From the NCBI GenBank assembly GCA_001189075.1, contig LFCN01000006.1:386041-450040 (forward strand): a stretch of DNA of 64,000 nucleotides. The letters run 5' to 3'. Origin of the DNA: Parcubacteria bacterium C7867-004 (GTDB lineage Bacteria; Patescibacteriota; Minisyncoccia; Phycocordibacterales; Phycocordibacteraceae). Shown here in pieces: positions 7,469 through 58,159 of the stretch. Every line of letters begins with the position of its first letter. Position 1 is the stretch's first letter. The notes below the pieces were generated by a model. The model ran no database searches. It saw nothing but the letters and a program-made list of their open reading frames with translations, and had not been told where the DNA came from. A program made the translations under genes and the position numbers.

Positions 7469-7478
7469 CTACCACAAC

Positions 7479-21631: not shown

Positions 21632-22222
21632 GTGCCGCGGCCTATGAGCTACGCCATGTTGGTAGCTGATAAGACCTGGGCTGGCGGTACGTCATACCTT
21701 ATGGACCAGGACGATACCAAAGCCTACTTCCTCCAGATTCACGACACCTACGCGAACGACATCTTCCGCTTCTGCCTTATGAAGGTTAGCAGCCGTGAGC
21801 TTGCGCAGGACCTCACCCAGGAGGTATTTATGCGCTTCTGGCAGGCGCTCCGGGAGGGTACGAAGATGCGTAGCGAACGCGCGCTCCTCTACACCATGGC
21901 CCGGAACCTGGTTATCGACTGGTACCGCAAGAAGAAGGAATCGTCACTCGATTCCTTAACCGAACAGGGTGTTGATTTCATGGGAGAAGACGGCTCCTCA
22001 ATCGAGCAGTCCGCTCAGATGCGCGAGGCCCTCGATTGCATCCGCGAACTTGATGAGTCCTCCCGCGAAGCGCTCACGCTCCGGTTTGTCGACGGCCTCT
22101 CGCCGAGCGACATCGCCAGCTTGTCCGGAGAATCAGCGAACGCCGTCTCCGTCCGCATCAATCGCGCCCTGAAGAAAGTCCGCACGCTCATGCATACCGA
22201 TGAACAACGAACACAAGACTAA
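21632..22222 (+). CDS. ECF-type RNA polymerase sigma factor (sigma-70 family, group 4)
   Basis: Region 2 (AQDLTQEVFMRFWQ...LYTMARNLVIDWYR) and region 4 HTH (LSPSDIASLSGESANAVSVRINRALKKVR). Alternative start at 21701. Confidence 0.8.
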   Translation: MPRPMSYAMLVADKTWAGGTSYLMDQDDTKAYFLQIHDTYANDIFRFCLMKVSSRELAQDLTQEVFMRFWQALREGTKMRSERALLYTMARNLVIDWYRKKKESSLDSLTEQGVDFMGEDGSSIEQSAQMREALDCIRELDESSREALTLRFVDGLSPSDIASLSGESANAVSVRINRALKKVRTLMHTDEQRTQD

Positions 22223-23225
22223 TCCCATTACTTTCATACAGACGCTCCGCGAGCTGAAACTTCCACCGGAAGCGCTTGCCCGTATGCGCGAAGAACTATC
22301 CGCCTATGCCGACCTGCATGCGGTGCCTGCCGCCGCGCCTGCTGTTTTTCCGGCCTTCTCATTCTCGTTCATGCGCAGTCGCGGGTTCCTCGCAGGAGCT
22401 CTCGCGCTGGTGCTCGTCGTTGCAACCGGAGGCGAAGCGGCGCTCGCTTCCGAGAAGGCGCTTCCCGGCGACATCCTTTATTCGGTGAAGGTCTCGTTCG
22501 CTGAGCCCGTCGCGCTTGCGCTTGCGTCTCATGGTGAGAGCAAAGCTGAGCTTTCAACGGTATTTGCCACCCGCCGTATCGAAGAAGCGACGGCACTTTC
22601 CGAGATAGGCGAGCTTACCGACGAGCGTGCGGAGGAACTCGCTTCCCGGTTCGAGGCGCACCTAGATGTTGCTGATGAAGAGGCGAAGTCTATTGAAGCT
22701 AGTGGCAATGTGAGTGGCTCGCTCGCTGTACGCGCCGATATAGAGAAGGGCATAACCGAGCAGATCCGGGTTCTCGCTCCTGAAGATGCTTCCGCCGCAA
22801 GAGGAACGAGTGTCATGATGATGGGCGCGCCTGCTCCGAGCGAGTCTGCGCCCATGATGGCGAAGATGGCCGTTACGGAACCCGCCGTCGAGGACACCAT
22901 AGTTGCGGAGCCTGCAGAACCGAGCGTTGCCGAGGAACCAACGCCTAAGGACCGCTTCTTCGCGCGCATACAGGTGAAGGCGCAGGAGTTCACGCTCGCG
23001 CGTGAAGAACTTGAGAGCGCGCTATCGGTACAAGTCGATTCTTCAACGGAGGTGACTGGGGGTCTTGAGGATACCGACGCGGGAAGCCCGACATTCATTG
23101 TCGATGACAACCTTTTCTCCACAACGACCGTTGAAGCTACCAGCACGATTGAAGTGATGAAGTCGGAAGCAGGGACCGAGCCTTCCGCGGCTTCACGCTT
23201 CTTTACGCCGTTCTACAAGAAGTAG
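22200..23225 (+). CDS. putative membrane-anchored anti-sigma factor (DUF5667-like)
   Basis: Overlaps the sigma-factor stop. Short cytoplasmic N-terminus, one TM helix (FLAGALALVLVVA), Ala/Glu-rich helical ectodomain. Confidence 0.5.
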   Translation: MNNEHKTNPITFIQTLRELKLPPEALARMREELSAYADLHAVPAAAPAVFPAFSFSFMRSRGFLAGALALVLVVATGGEAALASEKALPGDILYSVKVSFAEPVALALASHGESKAELSTVFATRRIEEATALSEIGELTDERAEELASRFEAHLDVADEEAKSIEASGNVSGSLAVRADIEKGITEQIRVLAPEDASAARGTSVMMMGAPAPSESAPMMAKMAVTEPAVEDTIVAEPAEPSVAEEPTPKDRFFARIQVKAQEFTLAREELESALSVQVDSSTEVTGGLEDTDAGSPTFIVDDNLFSTTTVEATSTIEVMKSEAGTEPSAASRFFTPFYKK

Positions 23226-30498: not shown

Positions 30499-30831
30499 AT
30501 GACCATCGTTCACTGGCTTATAACCGCAGTCGCTATCGGCATTGCTGCCTACCTTATTCCAGGTATCGAGGTGACCCTTGTTGGTGCGCTCGTACTTGCG
30601 GTGGTGCTTGGTATCATCAACGCCTTCATCAAGCCGGTCATCGGACTGCTCACGCTCCCTATTAACATCCTCACGCTTGGGCTCTTCTCGCTCGTGGTGA
30701 ACGCGCTCCTCATCATGCTTGCAGGAATGATCGTCCCGGGATTCGTCGTGGCGGGATTCTGGCCGGCATTCTTCTTCGCGATCGTCGTCGCTCTTGTCTC
30801 AGCGCTCTTCGGCTCGGTCGTGAAGAACTAA
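30499..30831 (+). CDS. YvlD/DUF360 (phage-holin-4 superfamily, PF04020-like) 4-TM membrane protein
   Basis: 110 aa with four hydrophobic helices. The pattern LIPGIEV...INAFIKPVIGLLTLPINILTLGLFSLVVNAL is typical of this family. Confidence 0.6.
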   Translation: MTIVHWLITAVAIGIAAYLIPGIEVTLVGALVLAVVLGIINAFIKPVIGLLTLPINILTLGLFSLVVNALLIMLAGMIVPGFVVAGFWPAFFFAIVVALVSALFGSVVKN

Positions 30832-30906: not shown

Positions 30907-31440
30907 CTAGAAGCCGGGATGACTCCTGCTGCCAAGCGAAAGGACGATGCTGGCAGCGCGCCACGGTGGCTGTTCGTCCAGGACGTGTGCATCGAACTCG
31001 ATCCGTTCGTCTTCCGGATCGAAGGTGATGGTTCCAGCTGCGTGAACCGCGCAGCTCGGATAGAAGATCACGTCCACGACGAGTCCGGTTGGACGGACCC
31101 GCTCAGGTTCCTGCACGAAGCGTGCAGTCTCTGAAAGGTCGAGACCATAGGGCGTCGGGAGCACCGCCAGGATCGTCAGATCGTCGCCGGGAATGGTCAG
31201 CTCGTGGCCGTGCACGAGAGCATTCCACTCGGTGATTGCCGCCGGAGAGTGTTGCAGAATGAGAGAGCGGAAATCCGCCGTCACCTTGATTAGCGGGCCG
31301 TCCTTGAAGAATTCCGCGGGGCGGAAGATCTCCTTGCGTGCGGGAAGCTCGAATCTGGTCGCGGGTTCCATTTTGTCGAAAACCGGAGGACCCGTCTCGG
31401 ACCCCCTACGCCACGCGGTATGGCCTACGGTGTCAGTCAT
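30907..31440 (-). CDS. hypothetical protein (177 aa), compositionally atypical
   Basis: Clean ORF on the minus strand, ending at the bidirectional terminator. No motif recognised. Confidence 0.45.
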   Translation of the reverse strand: MTDTVGHTAWRRGSETGPPVFDKMEPATRFELPARKEIFRPAEFFKDGPLIKVTADFRSLILQHSPAAITEWNALVHGHELTIPGDDLTILAVLPTPYGLDLSETARFVQEPERVRPTGLVVDVIFYPSCAVHAAGTITFDPEDERIEFDAHVLDEQPPWRAASIVLSLGSRSHPGF

Positions 31441-31672: not shown

Positions 31673-34414
31673 ATGGCACTGGAAGTTCCCGCACGGCCGA
31701 TTGCTTCGCCTGCAGACGAGCTGGCATACCTGCGTGCGCAGGTAGCGATGAAGGAGGCGGAATTGCTTACGCTCAAGCAAGAACGTCCGCGCGAGGAGAT
31801 CGCCCATGAGCGCATCCTCCATCACCGCATGAGCGCGAACGAGGAAGTGCTCGCTCCGGCGTATCGCATGACCGACGCGGAAGCCGCCAACCACTCGCTT
31901 ACGCTCGACCTTGATCCTGAACAGAACGACGAGACCATCGCGGAACTGCGGGGTGTTATGGAGGAGAAGGGTGTGCATAATGCCTTCACCATCCTCGAGA
32001 AGCTGAATAATCCGCACCTTGAGGACGATTTCCATCGTTTCCTCGTGCAGTACTTGGTAGCCGGCATGCAGCCGAAGGGTCTGGGAGAGAATCAGCCCGA
32101 ATGGAAGGCGCTGCATATGACGCTCTATGAGATCTCGCTTCCGGAGATGAGCGGAGAGAGTAAGGACGGAAGGGTAAAGACACTCAAGGAGCTGGTTTCC
32201 TCTATGGAACAGTTCTATTCGGGAATGCTCGCGGTTGAGAACGCGGGCCGTGGAGAGCCGCCCTATATGACGCTTGAGCTTGCAGTGCCGGTTGATAAGC
32301 CGCATCTCATGTTCTATGCGGCGATCCCAAATACGCGTCGCGACCTCTTCGAGAAACAGCTCCTCGCTATCTTCCCGAACGCGAGCGTTATCGCGCAGCC
32401 CAACGATTACAACGTGTTCGTGGAGAATGGATTCTCTCATGCGAGCGTCGCGTCCTTTAAGGATAAGGCGATGCTTCCGCTCAAGGACTACCAGGACTTC
32501 GATTACGATCCCCTCAATTCCCTCCTGAACGCCTTTGCGAAAGTAGCTCCCGAGGACGAGGGCGTCTCGCTCCAGATAGTCTTCAAGCCGCAGACGGATC
32601 ACTACGTCCATTACTATCGCCGGGTCCTCCACGCACTGCGCCAGGGAGAGCATCGTTCGCGTGCGTTCACGCTCCCGGAGACGTTCGTAGGGGATCTGGC
32701 TCGTGAAGCGTTCGGCCTCATCGCGACTTCCAAGAAACAGAGCGCGAACGAGCCAGTGGATCAGAAGGCGATAGAGATGGTTGAGAAGAAGATACAGGCG
32801 CCGGTAGTCTCGACGAATATCCGTCTCGTAGTATCGACGCCGGTGGAGTCCCGAACGCAACAGATCCTTTCGGAGCTCGAGTCTTCGTTCAACCAGTTCG
32901 AGCACACCACGGGCAATCGTCTGGAATTCCTCCGGCCCAATCGTGCCGGAATGAAGCAACTCCTCCGTGATTTCTCGTTCCGTCTCTTCAGGCAGGCGAC
33001 TAATCTCCCGCTCTCACTGCGCGAGCTTACGACGATGTATCACTTCCCACCGAACGGCATCGAGTCCGCGCCGAACCTGAAGCAGTCCCGCTTCGCAGCC
33101 GCTGCAGCCCCTGCCGATCTACCGCACGAGGGAACAAGTATCGGAACCAATACCTTCCGTGGACAGACTACCGAGGTACGCATCGCTCCCGAAGACCGTC
33201 TTCGACATCTCTACGCAATCGGTCAGACGGGGGCCGGAAAGACCGGCTTCCTGAAGACCCTCATCGAGCAGGACATCAAGGCTGGGAACGGTGTCTGTTT
33301 CATCGATCCGCACGGCAACGACATCCTCGATGTGCTCGCTATGATCCCGCCTGAGCGGTATGAGGATGTGATCTACTTCGACCCGGCTAATATTGACCGA
33401 CCGTTCGGGCTCAACATGCTTGAGTACGATCCAAATCGTCCAGAGCAGAAAACGTTCATCGTTAACGAGATGCTCGCCATCTTCCGTCAGCTGTACGGCG
33501 ACGTGCCGGAGTCGATGGGCCCGGCCTTCGAGCAGTATTTCCGTAACGCAACACAGCTGGTTATGGAAGATCCATCCTCAGGCTCAACGCTTATGGATAT
33601 CGGCCGCGTTCTTTCGAATAAGCCGTTCCGGGATCTCAAGTTGTCGCGCAGTAACAACCCGATCATAAATCAGTTCTGGAACGAGATCGCGACCCAAGCG
33701 GAAGGCGAGGCGAGCCTGCAGAACATCGTCCCGTATATCACGAACAAGTTCGATGAGTTCACCGGAAGCGACTTTATGCGTCCTATAATCGGCCAGCAAG
33801 AAAGCTCCTTCAAGTTCCGCGAGGTTATCGACACCAAGAAGATCCTGCTCGTTAATCTCTCGAAAGGAAGGCTCGGCGAGCGCAACGCGAACCTGCTCGG
33901 ACTCATTATCGTGGGCAAGCTCTTCATGGCGGCGCTCTCCAGAGTTGATGATCCGCGCGGCAACTTCCCGCCGTTCTATCTCTATATCGACGAGTTCCAG
34001 AACATCACCACCAATTCCATCCCGGGCATCCTCTCAGAAGCCCGCAAGTACAAGCTTTCGCTCACTATCGCGCACCAGTACTTGGCACAGATCGATGAGA
34101 AGATCCGTGATGCGGTCTTCGGCAACGTCGGCTCGATGGCGGTGTTCCGCGTCGGCCAGGAAGACGGGGAATTCTTTGGAAAGCTCTTCGCGCCATCATT
34201 CGCAGCGAGCGACTTCATCAACATCGAGAATCGCAACGCGTATGTCCGCATCCTAGCCCGTGGCGTTCCGCAGAAGCCGTTCAACATAAAGACGCTCGAT
34301 CTGGCACCCGGGAATCTCGGCCAGGTAGATGACTTGCGCGAGCTTTCGTATCTCACGTACGGACGGGACCGTGCTACAGTTGAAGCATCGATACGGGCAC
34401 GCTATCTCTCATAA
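31673..34414 (+). CDS. large P-loop ATPase of the FtsK/HerA/TraG superfamily (VirB4/VirD4-like AAA_10 domain) with ~500-aa unknown N-terminal domain
   Basis: IGQTGAGKTGFL (Walker A) ...VCFIDPHGND (the xDPxGE box of TrwB/VirB4-type ATPases) ...FYLYIDEFQN (Walker B) ...IAHQYLAQI. There is no TM segment. The start is chosen at MALEVPARP; the ORF is open from 31496. Confidence 0.6.
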   Translation: MALEVPARPIASPADELAYLRAQVAMKEAELLTLKQERPREEIAHERILHHRMSANEEVLAPAYRMTDAEAANHSLTLDLDPEQNDETIAELRGVMEEKGVHNAFTILEKLNNPHLEDDFHRFLVQYLVAGMQPKGLGENQPEWKALHMTLYEISLPEMSGESKDGRVKTLKELVSSMEQFYSGMLAVENAGRGEPPYMTLELAVPVDKPHLMFYAAIPNTRRDLFEKQLLAIFPNASVIAQPNDYNVFVENGFSHASVASFKDKAMLPLKDYQDFDYDPLNSLLNAFAKVAPEDEGVSLQIVFKPQTDHYVHYYRRVLHALRQGEHRSRAFTLPETFVGDLAREAFGLIATSKKQSANEPVDQKAIEMVEKKIQAPVVSTNIRLVVSTPVESRTQQILSELESSFNQFEHTTGNRLEFLRPNRAGMKQLLRDFSFRLFRQATNLPLSLRELTTMYHFPPNGIESAPNLKQSRFAAAAAPADLPHEGTSIGTNTFRGQTTEVRIAPEDRLRHLYAIGQTGAGKTGFLKTLIEQDIKAGNGVCFIDPHGNDILDVLAMIPPERYEDVIYFDPANIDRPFGLNMLEYDPNRPEQKTFIVNEMLAIFRQLYGDVPESMGPAFEQYFRNATQLVMEDPSSGSTLMDIGRVLSNKPFRDLKLSRSNNPIINQFWNEIATQAEGEASLQNIVPYITNKFDEFTGSDFMRPIIGQQESSFKFREVIDTKKILLVNLSKGRLGERNANLLGLIIVGKLFMAALSRVDDPRGNFPPFYLYIDEFQNITTNSIPGILSEARKYKLSLTIAHQYLAQIDEKIRDAVFGNVGSMAVFRVGQEDGEFFGKLFAPSFAASDFINIENRNAYVRILARGVPQKPFNIKTLDLAPGNLGQVDDLRELSYLTYGRDRATVEASIRARYLS

Positions 34415-34420
34415 TTATCT

Positions 34421-37400
34421 ATGGCACGAGGCAAAGGACCGGGAGGAGGATTGAATAGAGGACCATCGGCGCGTGCAGGCGGCGGAGGCAAAGGCGGTGG
34501 GGAGCGACCGCATGATTTGTCAGAGGGTCAGCGGACGGCGCTCAATGAGTGTGTACGAGCACATGAGTCTATCGAAAAACAATTCGAATCTGCAAAAATA
34601 AGAGTGATGCAACTTGGCGCAGAGGCGAAGATGCGAACTAAATCGATAGATGTCTCTTTAGCACTCTTAAAACTTAAGAGTGCGCTTAATGAATTTAGTT
34701 TCAATACCGGTACTAATCGAAACCAGCTACTGAAGGAGCTTCAGTCAATGGCTGAGGCTGCTGATGCAGCTATGACCGCCTTCAGTACCGCAATCGAAGC
34801 GGCAATAAGAGATGCGGCGCTTGGAGAAGAGGTAGGGAAAACGGGTGCCGATTCCGAAAAAGGATCAGAAGCAGCTCGGGAACAGATGGATGCAAGAAGA
34901 AGTTTGCTTGATCAGAGATTTACCGATGCGATCCATCGTTATAATAAAACTCTCGATAGATCGAGCGGTGTTACTACGAGACCCGTCTTCTTGGCTGAGT
35001 GTGAGGTTGTCGATGCCGAGATTAGGGCACTCACCCCGGCATTCACAGAATTTCTGCGCGGAGAGCACTGGAATGATTTGGCGCGTGAAGATGAGCTTCT
35101 TGCTGAAGCTGAAAGGAGACTTGCTGAGTACGACGCAGTAGTGGCGCGCAGCGAATCAGCGACGGAGGCGATGCTCCGCCGGACTGCTCTTGAGAATGAG
35201 AGTAAAGAGAAGAGGGCTGAAATTGACGCAGTACCAACCGAGCTGAAGTCATCCAGGCCTTTGCTAAAAGCATTTTTCAGCTTTTCGAACCTCCGGAGTG
35301 CCGCCGGCATGCTCAGTCTGGATGCTTCCAATAAGGAGCTGACCCCTGAGGCAAAGATTGGTCTGGCCTCTCAGCTCGAAGCTGCGTATCAAGCGGAAAT
35401 CGATGCTGCCAAAGAATTCCTTGCCGCTCTCTCAAGTGTGCCCGAAGAAGCAACGGCAGAGATGAGTCCAGAGGAAGCCGGCTGGAGAGCGCTGCTCCAG
35501 AAGCTCGAGTCAGACGGTTCGGTCAGCCTGAATCCGAAAGCCAAGCAGGAGCTTCAGGCCATCGCTAACGCACGCCTTGCAGAGCTCAAGAGCATGCCCG
35601 GTCTTTCCGCTAAGGACCGTAAGCAAGCAGAGGCAGTGCTTCGCCAGATCATCGCCGAGACGAAGAAGCCCGGGCTCGTTAAGGCAGGGCTCATCGCGCG
35701 CAGGATCAATCAGCTTCTGGCGCTCATCTATCCTGCTGCTGTCGCAGAGGAGCCTCCGGCAGCTGAAGCTGCGCCTCCGGAGGAGCCTCTTACGCTCGAG
35801 GCGCTCCAAGATCCACCTACTCCGCCAGATTCGGGTGTCGACAACACGCCGCTCGAGAACAGGGAGGCTCTGCGCAAGTCGCTCAAGGATTCGTTCGATG
35901 ACCTTGCGAAAAGCACCGGCGTCGAAGCTGCACGCACTGATATGCAAGCAAAGGAAGCTGCGTACCTAGCGGCATACAAGGCGCTCGAGAAAGAGCGCGG
36001 ACTCAAAGGTGGAATGTCGCGTCTTTTTTCCAAAAAGGCCAAGGAAGCATTCGCGCAACAAGAAGCCGATCTCGTACGCTTGAAGCAAGAATTCGACGAA
36101 TCTCGTGCTGCGTATTCTGCTGCACTTGAAGGTGCGCATACTATAAGCGACGACGACGCGCGCGCAGCTCATGCCCAGCGGATGGAAGAACGCTTCGCGC
36201 GGCTCAAGAAGAGCGGAGCGCTTCCGAAGGGCTCTGGTGGCAAGCCGGTCACGCTCGCTGAATACCTCGAACGTAACAAATTCGAGAAGTTTGCCGAGAA
36301 ACACGGAAAGGTCGAGAACTACCTGCGCTTCCGCGAGATCGTCCGCCCGCTTGCAGAGAAGAAGCTTCAGGCACGCTACGAAGCGCTTGATGAACGTCGG
36401 TTCCTTGCGCTCAATAAGGCCTTCGCGTGGGTAGCAATGAAGAACCAGGAATTCGAGAAGCATGTCGGTGGAAAGAACATGGCTCGTCTCATCCGCATTG
36501 TAGTTAGCGCCACGGTTATAACCGGCGGCGCAGCAGCATTCGGAGGCCTTGCTGGCGCCGGTATGGGAGCTATCCTCGGAGCTGGAGCGTTCCGGATGGG
36601 AAGGGCTGGGCTCGGTCTGATCGCGGGTGCCATCGCCGGCGAAGGTACGGGCCTCGCGTTCGAAGGGCTTTATCGCGGAGGTCAGAAAAAAGCAGGAAAA
36701 GATCTTCGCAAGGCTGGAGCGGAACTCGAGAGGCTGGTATTTGAAGACTTCGCTCGTATCGATAAGGAGCGCGGGAAGTTGGCGCTCAAGGCTGATGAAG
36801 TGAGATTCCTCAAGCAGAAGGCCGTCTGGCGGGCCACCGCCGCGGTTCTCGTCGGAGCCGGCACATCCTTCGCGTTCTCGGAGCTCGCCTCAGCTGCTTC
36901 CGTCGAAGCAGGAATCTCGGATGCGGCAAAAGCGCCAGGTTCAGTTCCGGGGAACGTTCCATCGGGTCCCGGTGCAGACGCTCCTGCAGCAGAGGCTGCT
37001 GGTTCAGGTAATCCAAGCACTCCCAATGCGGCGCCATCCGCTCCGGCCGCAAGCCCTGAGGCCGGACCGCAGGGGTCGTCCGCCGGAGGCCCTAACGCTT
37101 CTTCATCCGAATCTGGAGCTGCGAGTACCGCAGGCACTCCAGGAGGCGCACCAAGCACGCCGGGAGAGACACTCAAGAGCGTTTCCATAGACAAGAAGGG
37201 CGAAGGCATGGCGCAGATGTTTGTTGACCTGCGCGAATCCCTCAAGGCTGATCCGTCCCTTAAAGTATCTCCTCAGCTTACGGAGCTTCTCAGCAAGAAT
37301 CCGAACGCGCTCACGCATGAACTCGGCGCTGCCGCGGACGGTAAGAGTATAACCATGCAGCCGGGCGACCAGCTGATAGTCGACAAGGACCAGAATATTC

Positions 37401-38203
37401 TGCTCAAGCAGGGTACTGGCGAGCCGAAGCTTCTGTATAAGCACGAAGCTGATGGTGGATACAAAGCGGACACTGAAGCGCTCAAGGATGCGCACAAGCA
37501 GCCCGACGGCCCGGTTCGTCCGAAGGTCGAGGTCGGGAACACTCCTACTTCAGCTCCGGAGGATATGGTGAAGTTCACACCGAAGGAAGAACTTCCAGCT
37601 GACGGCGACTACATGAAAGAGAATCTGAACACGAAGCTGCCGTACGAATATCACACGTCGGAAAACGCGCCTACGACAGCCGAGATCGCACCTCCTGAGG
37701 TTTCTCCTGAAGAAGCTGCCGCAATCGACGCCGGAGCTATAGGACCTGCTCCTGAACCCGCGGCGCCTGCAGCGGCTCCTGCCCCAGAAGCTCCACGTCC
37801 TTCTGCGCCAACTCCGTCGGAGTCAGTACCTGAAGCAACTGCAGACAGGCCTCAAGCGGAAGCAGCGCCTGAAGTGTTTACGAACAAGCATGGTATCGCT
37901 ATTGATCCCGCTACGCCGACCGTTTTCGTTGATGATACGGGGAGGCAGGTGGCGCACGGAGGAACATTCGATGATCGTTTCAACACCGCGAAGAAGTATG
38001 CGCTCGCACATCCTGGCCCGATGGTCCTATTTGATGCGTCGTACACTGATCAGCTAACCGGGCAAAGAATCGCTGCGGTAGGCGGCATATCATCGACGCC
38101 AGACGGAAAGCTACAGATCGCTCCTGGAAGCCTTACCGGACCAGACGGTAAGCCGCTGCCAATTCCAAACACTGACACCTTTATCCGTAAGCTGAATTCC
38201 TAA
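34421..38203 (+). CDS. giant (1260 aa) coiled-coil membrane protein with glycine-zipper TM hairpin and Pro/Ala/Ser-rich stalk
   Basis: Starts 7 nt after the ATPase stop. Gly-rich N-terminus and ~650 aa of heptad/Ala-Glu-Lys-rich sequence. TM region LIRIVVSATVITGGAAAFGGLAGAGMGAILGAGAF...GLGLIAGAIAG (GxxxG repeats) and a second TM near WRATAAVLVGAGTSFAF. Then low-complexity P/A/S/G tracts and a ~130-aa C-terminal globular region. Confidence 0.6.
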   Translation: MARGKGPGGGLNRGPSARAGGGGKGGGERPHDLSEGQRTALNECVRAHESIEKQFESAKIRVMQLGAEAKMRTKSIDVSLALLKLKSALNEFSFNTGTNRNQLLKELQSMAEAADAAMTAFSTAIEAAIRDAALGEEVGKTGADSEKGSEAAREQMDARRSLLDQRFTDAIHRYNKTLDRSSGVTTRPVFLAECEVVDAEIRALTPAFTEFLRGEHWNDLAREDELLAEAERRLAEYDAVVARSESATEAMLRRTALENESKEKRAEIDAVPTELKSSRPLLKAFFSFSNLRSAAGMLSLDASNKELTPEAKIGLASQLEAAYQAEIDAAKEFLAALSSVPEEATAEMSPEEAGWRALLQKLESDGSVSLNPKAKQELQAIANARLAELKSMPGLSAKDRKQAEAVLRQIIAETKKPGLVKAGLIARRINQLLALIYPAAVAEEPPAAEAAPPEEPLTLEALQDPPTPPDSGVDNTPLENREALRKSLKDSFDDLAKSTGVEAARTDMQAKEAAYLAAYKALEKERGLKGGMSRLFSKKAKEAFAQQEADLVRLKQEFDESRAAYSAALEGAHTISDDDARAAHAQRMEERFARLKKSGALPKGSGGKPVTLAEYLERNKFEKFAEKHGKVENYLRFREIVRPLAEKKLQARYEALDERRFLALNKAFAWVAMKNQEFEKHVGGKNMARLIRIVVSATVITGGAAAFGGLAGAGMGAILGAGAFRMGRAGLGLIAGAIAGEGTGLAFEGLYRGGQKKAGKDLRKAGAELERLVFEDFARIDKERGKLALKADEVRFLKQKAVWRATAAVLVGAGTSFAFSELASAASVEAGISDAAKAPGSVPGNVPSGPGADAPAAEAAGSGNPSTPNAAPSAPAASPEAGPQGSSAGGPNASSSESGAASTAGTPGGAPSTPGETLKSVSIDKKGEGMAQMFVDLRESLKADPSLKVSPQLTELLSKNPNALTHELGAAADGKSITMQPGDQLIVDKDQNILLKQGTGEPKLLYKHEADGGYKADTEALKDAHKQPDGPVRPKVEVGNTPTSAPEDMVKFTPKEELPADGDYMKENLNTKLPYEYHTSENAPTTAEIAPPEVSPEEAAAIDAGAIGPAPEPAAPAAAPAPEAPRPSAPTPSESVPEATADRPQAEAAPEVFTNKHGIAIDPATPTVFVDDTGRQVAHGGTFDDRFNTAKKYALAHPGPMVLFDASYTDQLTGQRIAAVGGISSTPDGKLQIAPGSLTGPDGKPLPIPNTDTFIRKLNS

Positions 38204-38206
38204 GGT

Positions 38207-38506
38207 ATGAACACCGAACTTCCAACAACCATCCTCGAAGCTCTGGATATTGCGGAACTTCCGGCAGAAGAGCGGGAGGAACTGCTCCTTGACCTGAGTT
38301 CGCTCATATCTCGCGGAACGCTCGTGCGCCTCATCGAGCAGATGGACGACACTACAAGTGAGGCTTTCTCAAAGCTGATGGACACGAATCCTGATGAGGA
38401 AGCGGTTGAAGCTTTTCTGCTTGAGCGCGTACCAAATGCTGATCAGGCAGCGAGGGATGCCCTCAAAGAGCTTACGGATGATATAGTAGCTGCTACCAAA
38501 GCTTAA
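38207..38506 (+). CDS. small acidic helical protein (99 aa)
   Basis: Starts 4 nt after the giant ORF. pI clearly acidic (E/D-rich), no TM. Confidence 0.45.
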   Translation: MNTELPTTILEALDIAELPAEEREELLLDLSSLISRGTLVRLIEQMDDTTSEAFSKLMDTNPDEEAVEAFLLERVPNADQAARDALKELTDDIVAATKA

Positions 38507-38517
38507 CGAATACCGCT

Positions 38518-39060
38518 ATGAACGTTACAGGAAACGGAGTCGCTATAGCCCTTGCTGTAGCACTTGCAGGAGCATTCTTGTTCTTCGGCTCGTCCTTCCT
38601 AACATTGCCATTCGGCAGCCAGGACGCGGCGGTTGAAGTAGCGACTGAAGAGGCCAGTTCGACAGGCGCATTGGTATTACCGGTTAATCAGAATGCAATG
38701 GATCCACAAGAACAGATGGCGCAAGGAGAGCTCCCTACCGTACTTACCGCGAGTGACACGGTTATTGGTACAGGCGCCGAAGCGAAGACCGGCGACACCG
38801 TTATCGTCACGTATATCGGTGCGCTCCCAGACGGCACCGTCTTCGATGCGTCTAAGAACCATGGAGATGGAACCTTCTCCTTCACGCTCGGTGAAGGGAG
38901 GGTGATTCAGGGATGGGACAAGGGTGTTGTAGGCATGAAAGTAGGCGGAACCCGTCAGCTCGTTATCCCACCGGATATGGGATATGGCGCGGGAGGCCAG
39001 GGACCCATACCGCCGAATGCGACGCTTCTCTTTGAAATCGAGCTCGTCGGTATCAAATAG
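38518..39060 (+). CDS. membrane-anchored FKBP-type peptidyl-prolyl cis-trans isomerase
   Basis: N-terminal TM helix. C-terminal FKBP domain (TVIVTYIGALPDGTVFD...GEGRVIQGWDKGVVGMKVGGTRQLVIPPDMGYG...ATLLFEIELVGI). Confidence 0.8.
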   Translation: MNVTGNGVAIALAVALAGAFLFFGSSFLTLPFGSQDAAVEVATEEASSTGALVLPVNQNAMDPQEQMAQGELPTVLTASDTVIGTGAEAKTGDTVIVTYIGALPDGTVFDASKNHGDGTFSFTLGEGRVIQGWDKGVVGMKVGGTRQLVIPPDMGYGAGGQGPIPPNATLLFEIELVGIK

Positions 39061-44410: not shown

Positions 44411-44998
44411 ATGGAAAAACCCGTCATAGATGCAATTGCGCTCGACGCTTCATTGCCGCTCGATCTGTACGAGGAGAAGCCGATAGGGACCATGAACATG
44501 CCCGACGGCAGGAAGCTGCATGCCGTGCTCGGTCTCTCAAAGACCCATGCCGAGAAGCTCAAGGAACGATCTTTGGATGAGCAGGATCAGGATCTACAGC
44601 GCAATACGTCCGATCGGGAACGGTTCGGTCTGGGCTCGTACGAGGATTGGTACGCGAAAGGACGCTATCCGTTCGCGCTTATCGATGAGAACGACAATCT
44701 CGCGGCGCTCGTGTGGCTAGGGCATGTACCGAACCCGCTCCCGTCGGATGTCGGGTCGTCGCTATGGGACACCATCGCATTTCGTGCCTATCCGCCGTAT
44801 CGAGGCCAGGGAATCATGTCGCCATTCAGCCGCTTCGTGCTCCGGACCTATGAGGTTATGGCACCCGGACGGTCTATCTGGCTTGCCACCGATCAGTCGA
44901 ACGAATCGGGAATCGCGCTCTATACGAAGCTCGGGTTCGTGGACCGGGGACATGCCGAACGGGAGTCTCGGCGTATACTTGTGCTCGAACGAATGTAA
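44411..44998 (+). CDS. GNAT-family N-acetyltransferase
   Basis: The C-terminal Q/RxxGxG/A-like core and GIALYTKLGF fit the GNAT motifs A/B. Confidence 0.55.
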   Translation: MEKPVIDAIALDASLPLDLYEEKPIGTMNMPDGRKLHAVLGLSKTHAEKLKERSLDEQDQDLQRNTSDRERFGLGSYEDWYAKGRYPFALIDENDNLAALVWLGHVPNPLPSDVGSSLWDTIAFRAYPPYRGQGIMSPFSRFVLRTYEVMAPGRSIWLATDQSNESGIALYTKLGFVDRGHAERESRRILVLERM

Positions 44999-45005
44999 CG
45001 CACTC

Positions 45006-46163
45006 ATGTCACGTGTAAAGCTAACCGAATACCGCGCGAAGTCCCTCATCCTCGGTGAGGGATATCGAGGTGTATCGCTTAGAGCTTGCGATGCGGTCCA
45101 GTTCCCGAGCGGCGCGAAGCTCGTGCTCAAGGTGGATCAGGGCGTGAAGAAGCGCATGAAGCAGGGACTGGTCGCGGTAGGTATCGAGGCGACCGAGATA
45201 CCGGTCTTCATTGACGAATGGTCCTCACGCGGCTACTCGAACTTCATAGTCGAAGAGCTCTTCCCGCACGAAGAAAAGGAAGAGCAGTACCTGAGTCTTG
45301 AGCGGGTTCGGGACGGCTACCGGCTCCTCCATGCCGCCGAGGGCGGTATCGATATCGAGGAGCATCCGGAGAAGGTGACGAAACTCGTCGCATCCGGAGA
45401 AGGAGTAGCAACGGCGTTCGCGGAAGCTACCGGTCTTCCGGAAACCTTCCTGCAGGACCTGCTCGATTGCTTCGCCACAAAGCACTTCGCGTTTGTCGAG
45501 ATAAACCCGCTTGTTGTGCGCGGCACTGAGGTGTATCTCCTTGATGCCGCGGTTCTTGTTGATAGTGCCGGGCAGTTCTCAGTTAAGGACGCGTGGAGCG
45601 AATCAGACATTCCGGAGAAGAACGCGGCGCATGCGGCTGAAGCTACCGTTGCCGCTCTGCAGAAGACCACGCCTGCATCGCTTAAGCTTACGGTGCTCAA
45701 TCCGGATGCCAGCCTGTTCTTCCTTCTCTCCGGAGGCGGCGGCAGCATCGTGATAGCGGATGAAGCGGCACTACGGGGCGCAGGGAACGAGATAGGCAAT
45801 TACGGAGAATACAGCGGCGGACCGACGCGCGAAGAGACCTACCTCTATGCGAAAGAGGTTATCGCGCTCCTGCTCGCTTCCAAAGCAACGAAGAAGGCAC
45901 TGGTTATCGCCGGCGGCGTTGCGAATTTCACCGACGTCGGCAAGACGTTCGCGGGCATTATCGACGCTCTGTCCGAAGAGGTTTCCCGACTTCAGACAGC
46001 AGGAGTGAAAGTATTCGTCAGGCGGGGGGGACCGAACGAGAAGGCGGGACTTGCGCACATGCGATCCTACCTTGAAGAGCACGGACTGCTGGGAAGCGTG
46101 TATGGGTCCGATACGGTTATTACACAGGCGGTTGATGATGCTGTAGATTTCATACAAGGCTGA
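45006..46163 (+). CDS. ATP-grasp beta-type subunit of an ATP-citrate lyase / succinyl-CoA-synthetase-family enzyme (AclB-like)
   Basis: N-terminal LTEYRAKSL (compare SucC NLHEYQAK), ATP-grasp fold, C-terminal ligase-CoA domain (VLVIAGGVANFTDV). 385 aa. Confidence 0.6.
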   Translation: MSRVKLTEYRAKSLILGEGYRGVSLRACDAVQFPSGAKLVLKVDQGVKKRMKQGLVAVGIEATEIPVFIDEWSSRGYSNFIVEELFPHEEKEEQYLSLERVRDGYRLLHAAEGGIDIEEHPEKVTKLVASGEGVATAFAEATGLPETFLQDLLDCFATKHFAFVEINPLVVRGTEVYLLDAAVLVDSAGQFSVKDAWSESDIPEKNAAHAAEATVAALQKTTPASLKLTVLNPDASLFFLLSGGGGSIVIADEAALRGAGNEIGNYGEYSGGPTREETYLYAKEVIALLLASKATKKALVIAGGVANFTDVGKTFAGIIDALSEEVSRLQTAGVKVFVRRGGPNEKAGLAHMRSYLEEHGLLGSVYGSDTVITQAVDDAVDFIQG

Positions 46164-46164
46164 T

Positions 46165-47949
46165 ATGACACTACTTGATTCGATACGAGCGGGTGAACGC
46201 GGCATACTGGTCTCCGGTATTCACCTGCAGGTGATCCAGTCGATACTCGACTTCGATTATCTCTCCGGAAAGGAACGATCGATACTCGGTATTGTTGCGG
46301 GAGGCCGCAAGTCCGTGAAGCTGTTCTGGGGACCAGAGGAGTTCCTCATGCCCTGTTTTGCTTCCTTTGCTGACGTGCCGGAACAGTTCCGCGCCCAGGT
46401 CCGGTTCCTGCTGAACGTGCAGTCGGGACGGCGCGCGTACGAGTCCACCGTGGCATTCTTTGAAGCTTTTCCCGAAGCATACGGTGCACATATCTTCGCG
46501 GAGAATGTGCCTGAAGCAAGCGCGACCATGCTCATCGAGCAGTACGGAAAGACAAAAGTGATTGCAGGGCCCTCAGGGGTAGGGTTCGTTGTTCCGGGAC
46601 TGCTTAAGCTCGGCGCGATCGGGGGAGTCGATGCTACTCAGTTGTGGACGAACAAGCTCATGACTTCCGGATCGGTCGCAGTAGTCTCAACGTCCGGCGG
46701 TATGACGGGCGAACTCATCAACGCGGTTGCGGGAGCGGATAAGCGTCTCTCGTTCGCCTTCTGTATCGGCGGCGACCGCTTCCCAGTTACGGCGCTCTCC
46801 GAGGTTCTCAAGCTCGCTCAAGAGGATCCAAGCACAAAAGGTATCGCGTACTTCGGCGAGCTCGGCGGCGTAGACGAGTACGAGATCGTGGAACTCATCA
46901 AGAGCGGAACGCTCACGAAGCCGGTAGCGGCCTATATTGCCGGTATCATCGACGAATCCTTCGAGGAGCACGTCCAGTTCGGACATGCCAAAGCGCTGGT
47001 TGCGACTAATGACGAAAGTGCGCGAGCCAAGCGCGAGGCGCTGCGGGCTTGCGGAGTTGATGCGCCTGATACGTTCCCAGAATTTCTTGAGGCGCTCAAA
47101 AAGCTGCCGGGTGCCGATCACAAGGATGTTCCCGTCGATATCGCTCCCTTGCTTTCCCGTCGCTCAAGTATCCTCTCGACGCGGGAGATCATCGATCTCA
47201 AAAGCATTCCGGTATTCGTCGCAGAGGGGAAGTTGGTTACGCCTGAAACGGGCTTTATGTCAGCCGTAACGGGCGCGCTTCTGGGTCGCCCGCTTACCTC
47301 GCCTATTAGCCAGGCATTCTTCGAAGCGGTTGCGACGCTCCTTATCGATCATGGCGGGAATGTTTCTGGCGCTGTGAACTCCATGATAACGGCGCGTGCC
47401 GGAAAGGATCTGGTTTCGTCGCTCGTGAGCGGTCTCTTAACGATAGGTCCGCGCTTCGGAGGAGCTATCAACGAAGCGGCAGGGCTCTGGCTTACTGGAG
47501 CGCAGGGGGGACTTTCAGCAAGCGAATTCGTTACGCTCGAGACGAGTGGTGGACGAGTTATTCTCGGTATCGGCCATAAGAAGTATCGCGTGGGTATGCC
47601 GGATCCACGCGTAGCAGCGCTCTCGGAATTTGCGACGCTGCTCGATTCCCATCCGCACTATGACTTCGCTCGGAGTGTTGAAGCGGTAACTATCGGAAAG
47701 AACGGCTCGCTCATACTGAACGTCGATGGCGTTACGGCAGCACTTGCGCTCGATATCCTCAGCGAGTGCGAAGGATATACCCGTAGCGAGCTGACTGCGC
47801 TCAAGGATGCGGAGTTCTTCAATGCGCTCTTCATTCTTCCGCGGAGCGCAGGCTTCATGGCCCACATACTCGAACAGAAGCGCAACGATGAGGGCCTCTT
47901 CCGTCTCCCGGATAATCTCCTGTACACTCGCCCAGCTGGCGAGGAATAG
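46165..47949 (+). CDS. CoA-binding alpha-type subunit fused to citrate-synthase-like (citryl-CoA lyase) domain (AclA-like)
   Basis: Starts 2 nt after the beta subunit. SucD-like CoA-binding/ligase part, and C-terminal GIGHKKYRVGMPDPRV resembling the citrate synthase GxGHxVY...DPR signature. 594 aa. Confidence 0.55.
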   Translation: MTLLDSIRAGERGILVSGIHLQVIQSILDFDYLSGKERSILGIVAGGRKSVKLFWGPEEFLMPCFASFADVPEQFRAQVRFLLNVQSGRRAYESTVAFFEAFPEAYGAHIFAENVPEASATMLIEQYGKTKVIAGPSGVGFVVPGLLKLGAIGGVDATQLWTNKLMTSGSVAVVSTSGGMTGELINAVAGADKRLSFAFCIGGDRFPVTALSEVLKLAQEDPSTKGIAYFGELGGVDEYEIVELIKSGTLTKPVAAYIAGIIDESFEEHVQFGHAKALVATNDESARAKREALRACGVDAPDTFPEFLEALKKLPGADHKDVPVDIAPLLSRRSSILSTREIIDLKSIPVFVAEGKLVTPETGFMSAVTGALLGRPLTSPISQAFFEAVATLLIDHGGNVSGAVNSMITARAGKDLVSSLVSGLLTIGPRFGGAINEAAGLWLTGAQGGLSASEFVTLETSGGRVILGIGHKKYRVGMPDPRVAALSEFATLLDSHPHYDFARSVEAVTIGKNGSLILNVDGVTAALALDILSECEGYTRSELTALKDAEFFNALFILPRSAGFMAHILEQKRNDEGLFRLPDNLLYTRPAGEE

Positions 47950-53228: not shown

Positions 53229-54203
53229 ATGCGTGGAACGGTCGTCGGAGTATTGCGGGGCGGTCCATCTAAGGAGCACGAAGTGTCGCTTGCGACCGGT
53301 CACGCCGTCATCACGAACCTTCCCGAGGACCGCTTCACGGTAAGGGATATTTACATAGACAAGGACGGTATCTGGCATGAGCGTGGGCGGCCCGTGATGC
53401 CGGCGAATGTGCTCCCCTCGATGGATGCGGTTGTTGTGGGGCTGCATGGGGAATACGGAGAGGATGGGGAAGTACAGAAGCTGCTTGAGCGGTTCGGTGT
53501 TCCCTACACCGGCTCGGACTCATTCGGTTCGTACCTCGCAATGCATAAGGTGCTTTCCAAGGAGCGCGCGAAGGAGATGGGACTGCTCACCCCGAAGTAT
53601 CGATTCATCGAACGAGCTGACGATGCAGAAGCTATTGCGCAAGACATCATCCGTTCGTTCCATCAGCCGGTTGTCGTAAAGCCGATTCGGTGGGGTTCTT
53701 CAGTTGGCATATCGATTGTCGGCGGATACCAGCCGGTGCATTCGGCGATCCTTGAGCTTCTTGAGGCTGGAGCAGGAGGAGTGCTCGTCGAGGAACTTAT
53801 TCGCGGTACGGAAGCTACGGCAGGCGTCGTTGAGGGTCTTCGCGGTGAAGAGCTCTATATGCTCCCGCCGATTGAGATCATCCCGCCCAACGGCAGCTTC
53901 TTTTCGTACGACGTGAAGTATTCGGGGGCTACAGAGGAGATCGTACCGGGCCGCTTCCAGAAGTACGTGCAGAACGACCTCATGAAAGCGGCAAAGACCA
54001 TGCACGAAGCACTCGGACTTAGGCATTATTCCCGCTCCGACTTTATCGTCTCTCCTAAGGGCATCTATTATCTCGAGACCAATACGCTTCCCGGCATGAC
54101 TAAGGAATCGCTTCTCCCTAAATCGCTCGCTGCCGTCGGCGTTTCGCTCCCCGACTTCCTTACGCACGTGGTTGATCTCGCGCTAACCGGAAAGAAACGA
54201 TGA
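53229..54203 (+). CDS. ddl: D-alanine--D-alanine ligase
   Basis: N-terminal GGPSKEHEVSL, ATP-grasp motifs, LETNTLPGMT near the C-terminus. Confidence 0.85.
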   Translation: MRGTVVGVLRGGPSKEHEVSLATGHAVITNLPEDRFTVRDIYIDKDGIWHERGRPVMPANVLPSMDAVVVGLHGEYGEDGEVQKLLERFGVPYTGSDSFGSYLAMHKVLSKERAKEMGLLTPKYRFIERADDAEAIAQDIIRSFHQPVVVKPIRWGSSVGISIVGGYQPVHSAILELLEAGAGGVLVEELIRGTEATAGVVEGLRGEELYMLPPIEIIPPNGSFFSYDVKYSGATEEIVPGRFQKYVQNDLMKAAKTMHEALGLRHYSRSDFIVSPKGIYYLETNTLPGMTKESLLPKSLAAVGVSLPDFLTHVVDLALTGKKR

Positions 54204-54532
54204 GCGAGTACAGTGACAAGAAGTGCGTACCCTGCGAAGGCGGATTTCCGGCACTGACGCTCGCGCAGGCGCAGGATCTCATGGAGCATGCACCAGGCTG
54301 GAGCCTGAACGAGGCAGGTACTGAGATCCATCGAGACTATGCGTTTCCAGACTTCGCTACCGCGCTTTCGTTCGTGAACGAGGTAGGTGCGCTTGCCGAG
54401 GAGGAGGGTCATCATCCCGATATCACGCTTAGCTGGGGCAAGGTAGGAATTACCCTCACGACGCATTCAATAGGGGGACTCTCTGAGAACGATATTATCC
54501 TTGCGGCCAAGATAGGGCTTTTGCAGCCGTAA
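54200..54532 (+). CDS. pterin-4a-carbinolamine dehydratase
   Basis: EEGHHPD catalytic motif. ~110 aa. Confidence 0.8.
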   Translation: MSEYSDKKCVPCEGGFPALTLAQAQDLMEHAPGWSLNEAGTEIHRDYAFPDFATALSFVNEVGALAEEEGHHPDITLSWGKVGITLTTHSIGGLSENDIILAAKIGLLQP

Positions 54533-54565
54533 CGGGTATGGTATAAATCATACGTTCCCGAATAG

Positions 54566-54638
54566 GGGCCGTTAGCTCAGTTGGTAGAGCATCTCATTTG
54601 CAATGAGAGGGTCGCAGGTTCGAATCCTGTACGGTCCA
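54566..54638 (+). tRNA. tRNA-Ala (anticodon UGC), G3:U70 present, no encoded CCA
   Basis: Hand-folded: acceptor gggccgt/acggtcc with G3:U70, D arm gctc-agttggta-gagc, anticodon loop uuUGCaa, T arm gcagg-ttcgaat-cctgt, discriminator A. Confidence 0.85.
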
Positions 54639-54672
54639 CATTTGTTCACGAAGTCAAGGTTTCCGTCATTCC

Positions 54673-54710
54673 GTATTGGCGCGCTTAAGTTTCGGGAGGT
54701 TCTAATCTCA
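54673..54710 (+). repeat. left imperfect direct repeat flanking AT-rich islet
   Basis: gtattggcgcgcttaagtttcgggaggttctaatctca compared with 56901-56938 gtattggccgcgattcaatgaggggagttctaatacga. The gtattggc(c)gcg and gg(g)ag(g)ttctaat blocks are shared. Confidence 0.45.
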
Positions 54711-56900: not shown

Positions 56901-56938
56901 GTATTGGCCGCGATTCAATGAGGGGAGTTCTAATACGA
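56901..56938 (+). repeat. right imperfect direct repeat flanking AT-rich islet
   Basis: See left repeat; about 28 of 38 positions are shared. Confidence 0.45.
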
Positions 56939-57071
56939 TGTACTAAAAACCACCCCAGAGGACAAGGCGCTGTAATCAAACAGTTTCGTTTACCTGTCCG
57001 CTCACGTACATTGACGAACGTTCAAGTCGTTATACTCTTACTGCTATAGCACTATCATCTCTGTACGACCT

Positions 57072-57545
57072 ATGAGCTTCGATAAGATTCCTACTGCGCG
57101 CCCTACACAGGCAACTGAATCGTTGCGGGAACCTATTCAAGAAGAGCTCGCTGCAAGGCTCGACGAGGTCGCAAAAATGAACAAGATGTCGCTTGAGGAG
57201 CTTCGGAGTGTACGACGCAGGGAAGACAGAGAACTCCAAACGACCTTTTTTGAAGGAACCATTGCTGGTGTACGTGTTGTTGCATGGAAAGATAAAGCTC
57301 AGACTGCGGCCCCGTGGAGCTCAATAGGAACGAACAGTTATATCTATCGTGCAACGGTGGATGGTCTTGAGGTTGCGTCGGATCTCGATAAGCCACAAAA
57401 ACTCTATTTAAAACTGTTGATTGCTAATAGCGATTATTCCCGCACATATCAAGAGTCCGGTATACCGATGCCCGAGTCCCCCGACGCAGAAGCCTTGGCT
57501 GACCAGGTACTTGCAACTGGTGTTCCAACGGAAGATCCTGAATAG
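57072..57545 (+). CDS. hypothetical protein (157 aa)
   Basis: Clean ORF. No motif recognised. Confidence 0.4.
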   Translation: MSFDKIPTARPTQATESLREPIQEELAARLDEVAKMNKMSLEELRSVRRREDRELQTTFFEGTIAGVRVVAWKDKAQTAAPWSSIGTNSYIYRATVDGLEVASDLDKPQKLYLKLLIANSDYSRTYQESGIPMPESPDAEALADQVLATGVPTEDPE

Positions 57546-57571
57546 GCTTTTCGTATGCAACCGGGCTTTCT

Positions 57572-58150: not shown

Positions 58151-58159
58151 GCATATCCC

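Follow-up and report, generated by a model that had tools for sequence, protein, structure and literature searches.

A putative VirD4/TrwB-type ATPase and its linked genes in a chromosomal locus of Parcubacteria

Candidate phyla radiation (CPR) bacteria, also called Patescibacteria, make up a large share of bacterial diversity, and how Parcubacteria interact with their hosts is almost unknown. In 2,918 CPR genomes, 5,713 homologues of VirD4-like type IV coupling proteins (T4CPs) have been counted, of which 148 lie near virB4, and the authors of that preprint state that exaptation 'cannot be ruled out' (bioRxiv 10.1101/2025.01.22.634366). This raises the question of what such an 'orphan' ATPase is for and which genes, if any, accompany it. 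We address this here for one locus of Parcubacteria bacterium C7867-004, analysed within a stretch of 64,000 nucleotides (nt) of contig LFCN01000006.1 (positions 386,041 to 450,040), called the window below and used for all coordinates. As a preliminary description of the window had reported, the locus consists of four co-directional open reading frames (ORFs) on the + strand, at 31673-39060. They encode an ATPase, a giant membrane protein, a small acidic protein of the DUF5663 family and a membrane-anchored FKBP peptidyl-prolyl isomerase, with intergenic gaps of 6, 3 and 11 nt.

Our best explanation, held tentatively and at a little less than even chances, is that the locus is a chromosomal, vertically inherited Parcubacteria module arranged around a coupling-protein (VirD4/TrwB-type) ATPase outside a conjugation context.

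The ATPase and its family

The ATPase (31673-34414, + strand; 913 amino acids, aa) has the same sequence (100% identity) as a protein that NCBI lists as 'putative Type IV secretory pathway VirD4 component [Parcubacteria bacterium C7867-004]'. Its reading frame extends 5′ to a GTG at 31496; the homologues and the NCBI protein begin at the methionine at 31673. The C-terminal part (33125-34411, + strand) is a TrwB/VirD4-type nucleotide-binding domain with an inserted all-alpha domain. It includes the boxes quoted in the preliminary description: Walker A (GQTGAGKT, aa 517-524; 33221-33244, + strand), FIDPHGN, YIDEFQN with the DE of Walker B (D773/E774; 33989-33994) and AHQYL. Conserved Walker A and Walker B motifs and a C-terminal 'HQ' together form the FtsK/HerA-superfamily P-loop signature of T4CPs. 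Residues G517, G520, K523, D773, E774, R791 and Q802 are invariant in 51 relatives at 30-50% identity, and the motor is predicted to be catalytically intact.

The enzyme had been called VirB4/VirD4-like, and the two halves of this name fare differently. A profile of the 51-member family, compared by hhalign with proteins of R388, matches TrwB at 95.9% probability; the 273 aligned columns start ahead of Walker A and run past the 'HQ'. By contrast, TrwK/VirB4 is matched at only 12%, in the Walker B region alone. The AAA_10 label that had been attached to the protein is not borne out: neither AAA_10 nor CagE_TrbE_VirB of Pfam matches it, and the two models that do are TraG-D_C, which passes its cut-off (24 bits for 22), and DUF87, which falls just short (23.1 bits for 23.2) and covers the P-loop only. 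With the NCBIfam models for TraD and VirD4-like proteins the scores, 24-40 bits, stay far under the cut-offs of 250-800. Precomputed matches of the homologues include DUF8128 (PF26449), T4SS-DNA_transf, TraG-D_C and, in many of them, TrwB_AAD_bind (PF10412).

Structure prediction with AlphaFold2 from 32 close homologues gave a poor model (pLDDT 57.6), and a model from 96 sequences was used instead (pLDDT 83.7, pTM 0.66). It places helices at residues 592-700, between Walker A and Walker B, in a region that aligns with TrwB in the hhalign comparison. By Foldseek the model resembles TrwB (TM-score 0.65) and also aligns over ~900 columns, at a low TM-score, with full-length TrwK (E 1.6e-14). Searched as a single sequence against solved structures, the ATPase retrieved nothing; its profile gave weak P-loop matches in the PDB, the best of them to DotL (E 0.012). 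The TraG-D_C match, the Pfam matches of the homologues, the contrast between TrwB and VirB4 in hhalign and the invariant catalytic residues argue that the protein is a VirD4/TrwB-type coupling protein and not a VirB4 or an FtsK. The FtsK/SpoIIIE features that we looked for, namely the alpha/beta motor domains, a gamma domain and a multi-pass N-terminal transmembrane (TM) domain, are absent. Those of HerA are absent as well, since DUF87 stays under its threshold and there is no NurA-like neighbour.

A crude hydropathy screen found no hydrophobic segment in the N-terminal ~700 aa, and hence no N-terminal TM anchor. The single segment that passes the screen, at ~aa 740, is within the ATPase domain and occurs at the same place in homologues. 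The preliminary description had recognised nothing in the ~500 aa that precede the motor. They comprise a described, if uncharacterised, Pfam family and a fused small partner. The family is DUF8128, an alpha/beta N-domain covering ~aa 150-480 (32120-33112, + strand), which is matched in the precomputed Pfam annotation (PF26449.1) of the identical NCBI protein and of all listed homologues, and in which the AlphaFold2 model is confident (pLDDT 85-97). Part of it (from aa ~176-267) can be aligned with T4CPs of actinobacteria and archaea, as well as with gp156 of phage G. The partner is represented by aa 1-135 (31673-32077, + strand), a helical module with a coiled-coil segment and an 'NPHLxDDFHRFLVQY' motif. 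In 27 of 80 metagenomic loci with TM-anchored ATPases, a gene of ~137 aa lies immediately upstream of the ATPase gene; a hidden Markov model (HMM) of this upstream family matches aa 10-128 of the window ATPase (28.5 bits, 1e-10), and the two share the coiled-coil segment and the motif 'KG..A...A...NP.LLD.FHD.LVD'. A Pfam scan of the ~137-aa protein gave no informative match. Since residues 10-128 are homologous to a separate upstream gene of membrane-anchored relatives, the small partner is fused to the ATPase, and the TM anchor absent, in the window clade and in a sister clade at ~50% identity. The ATPase thus has three parts: the ~130-aa helical partner, the DUF8128 N-domain and the TrwB-like motor with its all-alpha insertion.

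Relatives were sought exhaustively among 50%-identity cluster representatives, and also among GTDB species representatives; the 80 metagenomic loci were retrieved with TM-anchored forms. Of the cluster representatives, 20,171 match at E<=1e-3 and 5,088 do so at E<=1e-30. Most are ~800 aa long with a single N-terminal TM helix and align to the window ATPase only from residue ~145-210; one TM-anchored relative comes from Candidatus Wolfebacteria. Among the GTDB species representatives at least 563 stretches encode relatives, and the best 80 of these, from 80 species and of ~20 kb each, are referred to here as the close loci. In these the ATPase is 59-90% identical over its full length, UvrB 75-94% and TGT 64-88%. 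The ATPase is thus the highly conserved core gene of the module, with conservation comparable to that of UvrB or TGT. The order Holin-ATPase-...-FKBP-TGT-UvrB is collinear across all 80. In five loci with ATPases at ~50% identity (L081-L085), and in many of loci L111-L162, the ATPase gene is placed directly after SecY-Adk-Map, where the ribosomal spc operon ends, with NDK next; for a T4CP homologue, so housekeeping a position is striking. The five loci include no relaxase or mating-pair formation (MPF) genes.

Outside the CPR, tblastn finds relatives at 22-28% identity over residues ~180-890 in Streptomyces and Embleya replicons, in plasmids of Priestia, Sulfolobus and haloarchaea and in Bacillus phage G. 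The Embleya relative belongs to a typical monoderm conjugation cluster (PrgI - XF1762 - ATPase - T4CP - relaxase-like - NlpC/P60) and that of Sulfolobus pMGB1 is the TraG-like gene of the plasmid. Since the nearest non-CPR relatives lie in conjugation clusters, the ancestry of the ATPase is that of a conjugative T4CP, while its present context is not conjugative.

Two observations on the TM-anchored forms may be added. A subgroup with DUF8128 carries P/A-rich, apparently disordered C-terminal tails of 300-1,200 aa, and these long-tailed ATPases end in a conserved 'GE(V/I)(Y/F)(V/I)DExGNVxxGE' ('GEVYVDExGNVxxGE'). We considered whether relatives of 1,200-2,000 aa might be fusions of the ATPase with the giant protein described below and rejected the idea: their tails have no further conserved hydrophobic segment and are not matched by HMMs of the giant's domain 1 and C-terminal domain. 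In loci L086-L119, a GtrA-like multi-TM gene (~210 aa), probably unrelated, is often found 3′ of the ATPase gene, and a large multi-TM protein (~480-650 aa, 8-10 predicted TM segments) often two genes upstream; both may be a coincidental cell-envelope context.

The giant protein, DUF5663 and their neighbours

The second and third genes, encoding the giant (1260 aa; 34421-38203, + strand) and the DUF5663 protein (99 aa, net charge -16; 38207-38506, + strand), recur with the ATPase well beyond this genome. In 64 of the 80 close loci the ATPase stop codon is followed, after a few to ~100 nt or with a slight overlap, by the start of a large ORF (446-1417 aa), and nearly all of these 64 have one or more hydrophobic segments in mid-sequence. 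In 49 of the 80 a DUF5663 gene lies downstream of the ATPase at a distance of up to 5 kb; none occurs elsewhere in the loci, and the window has a single copy.

More distant loci are of particular value here as they differ in gene order. Of the 80 metagenome loci, 11 have a DUF5663 gene no more than three genes away from the ATPase, as does L083, one of the five ~50%-identity loci; the ATPase is mostly a TM-anchored one, and these are all 12 of the DUF5663 genes found in distant loci. One arrangement is as in the window, with the ATPase followed by a large protein having TM segments in mid-sequence (471-1106 aa) and then by DUF5663. In the other, the large mid-TM protein (592-1040 aa) comes first, followed by DUF5663, the ~145-181-aa partner and the ATPase. 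In L083 DUF5663 adjoins the ATPase and there is no giant. The distant large proteins share the giant's membrane module. A linkage that survives rearrangement argues for a functional connection between ATPase, giant and DUF5663, and the patchy presence of the last two shows that they are accessory to a core of ATPase and small partner. They thus behave as a facultative accessory pair that tracks the ATPase family through differing gene orders. The association of ATPase, giant and acidic protein had been proposed from this one genome and is upheld by these loci, in two gene orders; the implied picture of a fixed set is not, because the pair is facultative and hypervariable and ~10 close relatives have neither member.

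The Pfam model DUF5663 (PF18908) reaches 22.1 bits on the window protein, for a cut-off of 23.7, over nearly its full length (2-82 of 84), and matches 29 of 36 orthologues at E<=0.01 (best 7e-7). The protein is predicted to be helical and is a candidate adaptor or chaperone. It has no significant match to any solved structure and no WXG motif. A literature search for DUF8128, DUF5663, PF26449 and PF18908 found no paper that mentions them.

The giant is built of several parts, most of which the preliminary description had noted. Its N-terminus is Gly-rich (the NCBI annotation is 109 codons shorter), and its N-terminal 687 aa are helix-favouring, with 58% A/E/K/L/R/Q. A crude heptad test flags ~420 aa, so the ~650 aa of coiled coil first suggested are an upper estimate. 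A juxtamembrane and membrane module (aa 600-830; 36218-36910, + strand) is shared among giants by BLAST coverage. It consists of a helix, 'RY.R..RF.EV..P.AE.K..AR.EAL', a G/A-rich 37-aa hairpin (688-724), a basic segment of ~78 aa and a TM segment (803-826). Two P/A/S-rich linkers (aa 827-915 and 1081-1145) precede two conserved domains. Domain 1, predicted to be extracellular (aa 915-1050; 37163-37570, + strand), has the motif GEG...LF.DLR...GD.LFVD..QN.WF and is common to at least 22 giants; it has no Pfam or PDB sequence match. The C-terminal domain (aa 1145-1260; 37853-38200, + strand), with the motif FTN..G..ID...P.VY.D..G...AYGG, is common to ~20 giants and has no match in the PDB. In fact no part of the giant is matched in Pfam, the PDB or PADLOC, and Pfam scans of distant giants and of a coiled-coil protein of L081 were uninformative.

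Similarity among giants is confined to the membrane module (here from aa ~550 to 830), domain 1 (~915-1050) and the C-terminal domain (~1145-1260), while their N-terminal ~550 aa show no detectable similarity to one another. With the membrane module, jackhmmer retrieves 38 close loci and the distant L108, L143 and L154, and phmmer adds L095 and L104; a word-indexed search with the C-terminal 721 aa finds only 4 proteins. In the closest relative the ATPase is 90%, UvrB 94% and DUF5663 64% identical, and a 997-aa giant at the same position gives a BLAST E no better than 0.77. Where the ATPases of a pair are 80-89% identical, the median share of identical residues between the giants is 12%. The giant therefore diverges or is swapped extremely fast. 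Across homologues, basic residues cluster before the G/A-rich hairpin and in the ~78 residues after it, and by the positive-inside rule this charge distribution suggests a topology with the N-terminus inside, a re-entrant or hairpin segment, one full crossing (the last TM segment, 803-826, is clean) and the C-terminal ~430 aa outside the cell. A 'PP' motif, often an aromatic residue, PP and then basic residues, lies 5-18 residues from the start in 40 of 65 giants and in 66 of 908 other ORFs, although these sequences (L002-L080) are related and a p-value is indicative only. The window giant is a Gly-rich N-terminal variant without PP (34421-34500).

The fourth gene of the proposed operon stands apart. 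The FKBP (180 aa; 38518-39060, + strand) has, as first described, an FKBP_C domain (PF00254; E=4e-31, 107.6 bits) behind an N-terminal hydrophobic anchor. It is probably co-transcribed with the others. Terminator-like sites in the region show no excess over shuffled sequence, and none convincingly splits the four genes. Its membership of the module is unsupported, since it directly follows the ATPase in loci without a giant and is missing from the ATPase locus in the ~50%-identity clade. Upstream, a small membrane protein with 4 TM segments of the Phage_holin_4_2 family (30499-30831, + strand; Pfam 2.5e-30) is present in most of the 80 close loci. It is not among the called genes of the five ~50%-identity loci, nor among the recurrent neighbour families of distant loci. 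We considered both genes as module members and set them aside, as their adjacency is confined to the close, fully syntenic clade; they are probably neighbours through local synteny. Between the holin-like gene and the ATPase, a 177-aa ORF on the - strand (30907-31440) matches no family and is without counterpart in all 80 related loci; it is an orphan insertion, or else no true gene.

The locus is surrounded by core genes for class I LysRS, a class I aminoacyl-tRNA synthetase, TGT, UvrB, UvrA, UvrC and Ddl, with ATP-synthase subunits, a sigma factor and a DnaX-like clamp loader nearby, and tight gene spacing is common across the whole window. GC content is even across the locus (0.53-0.58 over 28-44 kb of the window). 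Family scans of the 64-kb window found no integrase, relaxase, VirB4, VirB6, VirB8, pilin or other MPF genes, in agreement with the lack of VirB6, VirB8 and pilin partners already remarked upon, and no tRNA-flanked boundaries were found at the locus. PADLOC identified no defence system: the ATPase has weak P-loop similarity to mad8/HerA only (E 2.4e-10), the giant, DUF5663, FKBP and holin-like proteins have no match, and no partner genes of any system are present. None of the marks of an integrative and conjugative element was found, whether an integrase, a relaxase or MPF genes, boundaries in composition or at tRNA genes, or a patchy distribution, and the locus is collinear in 80 species. The housekeeping flanks, the even GC and the position after SecY-Adk-Map in the sister clade all argue that it is not a mobile element. 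The early view that the ATPase is neither an FtsK nor a T4CP within an integrative element therefore holds.

Elsewhere in the window, a low-GC island (54000-58200; 0.43-0.48 as against ~0.56 elsewhere) may be horizontally acquired and possibly defence-related, with no PADLOC match; it encodes a CHAT-domain (caspase-like) protein of 699 aa (54742-56841), an ORF without Pfam match (57072-57545) and a NUDIX protein (57572-58150). Two adjoining genes at 44724-47949 resemble ATP-citrate lyase subunits (Citrate_bind and ATP-grasp, then Citrate_synt and CoA-ligase), an enzyme that is, to our knowledge, unusual in a metabolically reduced Parcubacterium. At 21632-23225 the gene for a sigma factor of extracytoplasmic function type (Sigma70_r2/r4) overlaps by 23 nt the start of that for a 341-aa DUF5667 protein, with the look of a sigma/anti-sigma pair. 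A cluster of likely secreted or surface proteins (3976-8213) includes a matrixin-like metallopeptidase (3976-4836), a beta-helix protein of 682 aa that has a proline-rich region (5015-7063) and, at 7479-8213, a protein with a borderline match to Tsi1, a type VI secretion immunity protein (26.9 bits for a cut-off of 27).

Possible function and competing explanations

Our favoured reading, at the strength given in the introduction, is that an exapted T4CP motor acts together with a membrane protein that is exposed at the surface and diversifies, and with a small acidic adaptor. An apparatus for secretion, attachment or DNA transfer, as the preliminary description had suggested, is a candidate function. 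The ATPase would be a hexameric, membrane-proximal motor or substrate receptor which, having no TM anchor of its own, might be recruited to the membrane by the giant's cytoplasmic helical arm or by its conserved juxtamembrane module. The C-terminal linkers and two conserved domains of the giant would project outside as a diversifying contact element, facing a host, a partner or a phage, and the DUF5663 protein would serve as adaptor or chaperone between ATPase and giant. The machine may move a macromolecule, protein or DNA, or supply the energy by which the surface protein is assembled or remodelled. FKBP and the holin-like gene would be bystanders.

Several observations weigh against this reading. 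In ~10 close loci the ATPase leads straight to FKBP, with neither giant nor DUF5663, and both are also missing from most ~50%-identity loci and most TM-anchored loci. As the ATPase is kept there, it has a function for which they are not required. Much of the synteny within the close clade could be a matter of inheritance, because TGT and UvrB are equally syntenic. The proposed topology of the giant is drawn only from hydropathy and the positive-inside rule, and segment 729-750, the putative second TM of the hairpin region, is charged in most homologues. Two DUF5663 orthologues have weak IcmW matches (best E 5e-4, below threshold), a hint only. Together with DotL as the best PDB profile match of the ATPase, this likeness is suggestive and far from significant.

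In the main competing explanation, the ATPase would be the coupling protein of the VirB4-type (MPF-FATA-like) type IV secretion system (T4SS) that is found elsewhere in many CPR genomes, often near dnaA, with the giant as translocated substrate or effector and DUF5663 as its small acidic chaperone or adaptor. We consider this possible, if rather doubtful. T4CP genes are often found away from virB4, and chromosomal T4SSs are reported to be common in CPR genomes. The nearest non-CPR relatives, those of the Embleya cluster and Sulfolobus pMGB1, are true conjugative T4CPs, and the weak IcmW match would fit. A large, fast-evolving protein followed by an acidic one of ~100 aa is also a classic effector-chaperone layout, for which VirE2/VirE1 and the IcmSW-dependent effectors provide parallels. 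The 'aromatic-PP-basic' motif at the N-terminus of giants could be a recognition peptide; T4SS signals are, however, usually C-terminal. Other points speak against it: the giant shows nothing of a soluble effector and contains a conserved membrane module, the 64-kb window holds no T4SS gene, and canonical T4CPs dock to the channel by a TM anchor that is absent from this ATPase. Moreover, the Southlakia T4CP homologue is reported to be non-essential while the T4SS genes are essential.

The linkage of ATPase, giant and DUF5663 would also accommodate an undescribed, CPR-specific envelope machine made up of the ATPase, its small helical partner, the giant and DUF5663 and independent of any VirB4-type T4SS. 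Here the motor would drive the export, display or exchange of the diversifying surface or host-contact protein, or would move DNA or protein through the giant. We find this conceivable and on balance improbable; were it true, it would help to explain how Parcubacteria attach to or exploit their hosts.

Conservation comparable to that of UvrB and TGT, the position at the end of the ribosomal-SecY-Adk-Map operon in the sister clade and retention where the giant has been lost would all suit a housekeeping DNA translocase, such as an FtsK-like segregation or a DNA-uptake motor, with giant and DUF5663 as an unrelated, co-transcribed surface cassette. We judge this unlikely: the linkage of giant and DUF5663 to the ATPase survives both a change of gene order and a large evolutionary distance, and at least some CPR bacteria carry an ftsK of their own, as is reported for Saccharibacteria TM7x.

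It might also be argued that the genes form no functional unit at all, adjacency being regional synteny and tight spacing the mark of a compact CPR genome. Collinearity from the holin-like gene to UvrB in all 80 close loci, the disappearance of FKBP and holin-like neighbours outside the close clade and the tight spacing throughout the window are what this predicts. For FKBP and the holin-like gene it holds. For the ATPase, giant and DUF5663 it is largely refuted by the 12 of 12 distant DUF5663 genes within three genes of the ATPase in two arrangements, and by the fusion of the small upstream partner to the ATPase in the window clade; as an account of the whole locus it is very unlikely. That an integrated conjugative element, or a HerA- or MADS-like defence island, left this locus behind as its remnant, as T4CP ancestry and the mad8/HerA P-loop match could suggest, is effectively refuted by context and synteny, that is, by the lack of integrase, relaxase, MPF genes, tRNA-flanked boundaries and PADLOC partner genes, the even GC and vertical inheritance across 80 species.

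The ATPase is not categorically new, since its family is already catalogued, though uncharacterised, as DUF8128/T4CP-like; the module as a whole appears to be undescribed. The locus gives 'orphan' VirD4-like genes a concrete anatomy, with a small partner, DUF8128 and a TrwB-like motor joined in a Rosetta-stone fusion. To this it adds a housekeeping-like position and a recurrent accessory pair of giant and DUF5663. If the link is functional, it would identify a candidate host-contact or translocation device, provide a working context for two domains of unknown function and represent a case of a conjugation ATPase repurposed.

Comparison with known systems

The arrangement recalls type VII secretion (EssC/EccC, with EsaA as a large membrane protein and helical WXG100 proteins of ~100 aa) by analogy only, with no homology shown. 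DUF5663 has no WXG motif and no EssA/EssB/EccB/D/E homologues were detected. EssC/EccC combine FHA, TM and three FtsK domains, whereas the window ATPase has a single domain of T4CP type. With VirB4/TrwK it shares a layout, an alpha/beta N-domain followed by a C-terminal motor, and differs in its 12% profile match, in having no CagE_TrbE_VirB or AAA_10 match and in an all-alpha insertion that aligns with TrwB. The Legionella Dot/Icm system (DotL with IcmS/IcmW) offers the likeness of a T4CP served by small acidic helical adaptors. All similarities to it are weak or sub-threshold, and the locus has no equivalents of DotM, DotN or LvgA.

The closest resemblance is to the T4CPs themselves (VirD4/TrwB/TraG/TraD and the PcfC-like proteins of monoderm MPF-FATA systems). 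The TrwB-like nucleotide-binding domain, the all-alpha insertion, Walker A and B and the 'HQ' are shared, homologues of the ATPase match TrwB_AAD_bind, T4SS-DNA_transf and TraG-D_C, and its distant relatives bear an N-terminal TM anchor. Unlike T4CPs, the window ATPase has no such anchor and no relaxase or MPF genes nearby. It carries instead the additional DUF8128 domain and the fused ~130-aa helical partner, sits in a housekeeping chromosomal context where it is vertically inherited, and is linked to a giant hypervariable membrane protein and to DUF5663.

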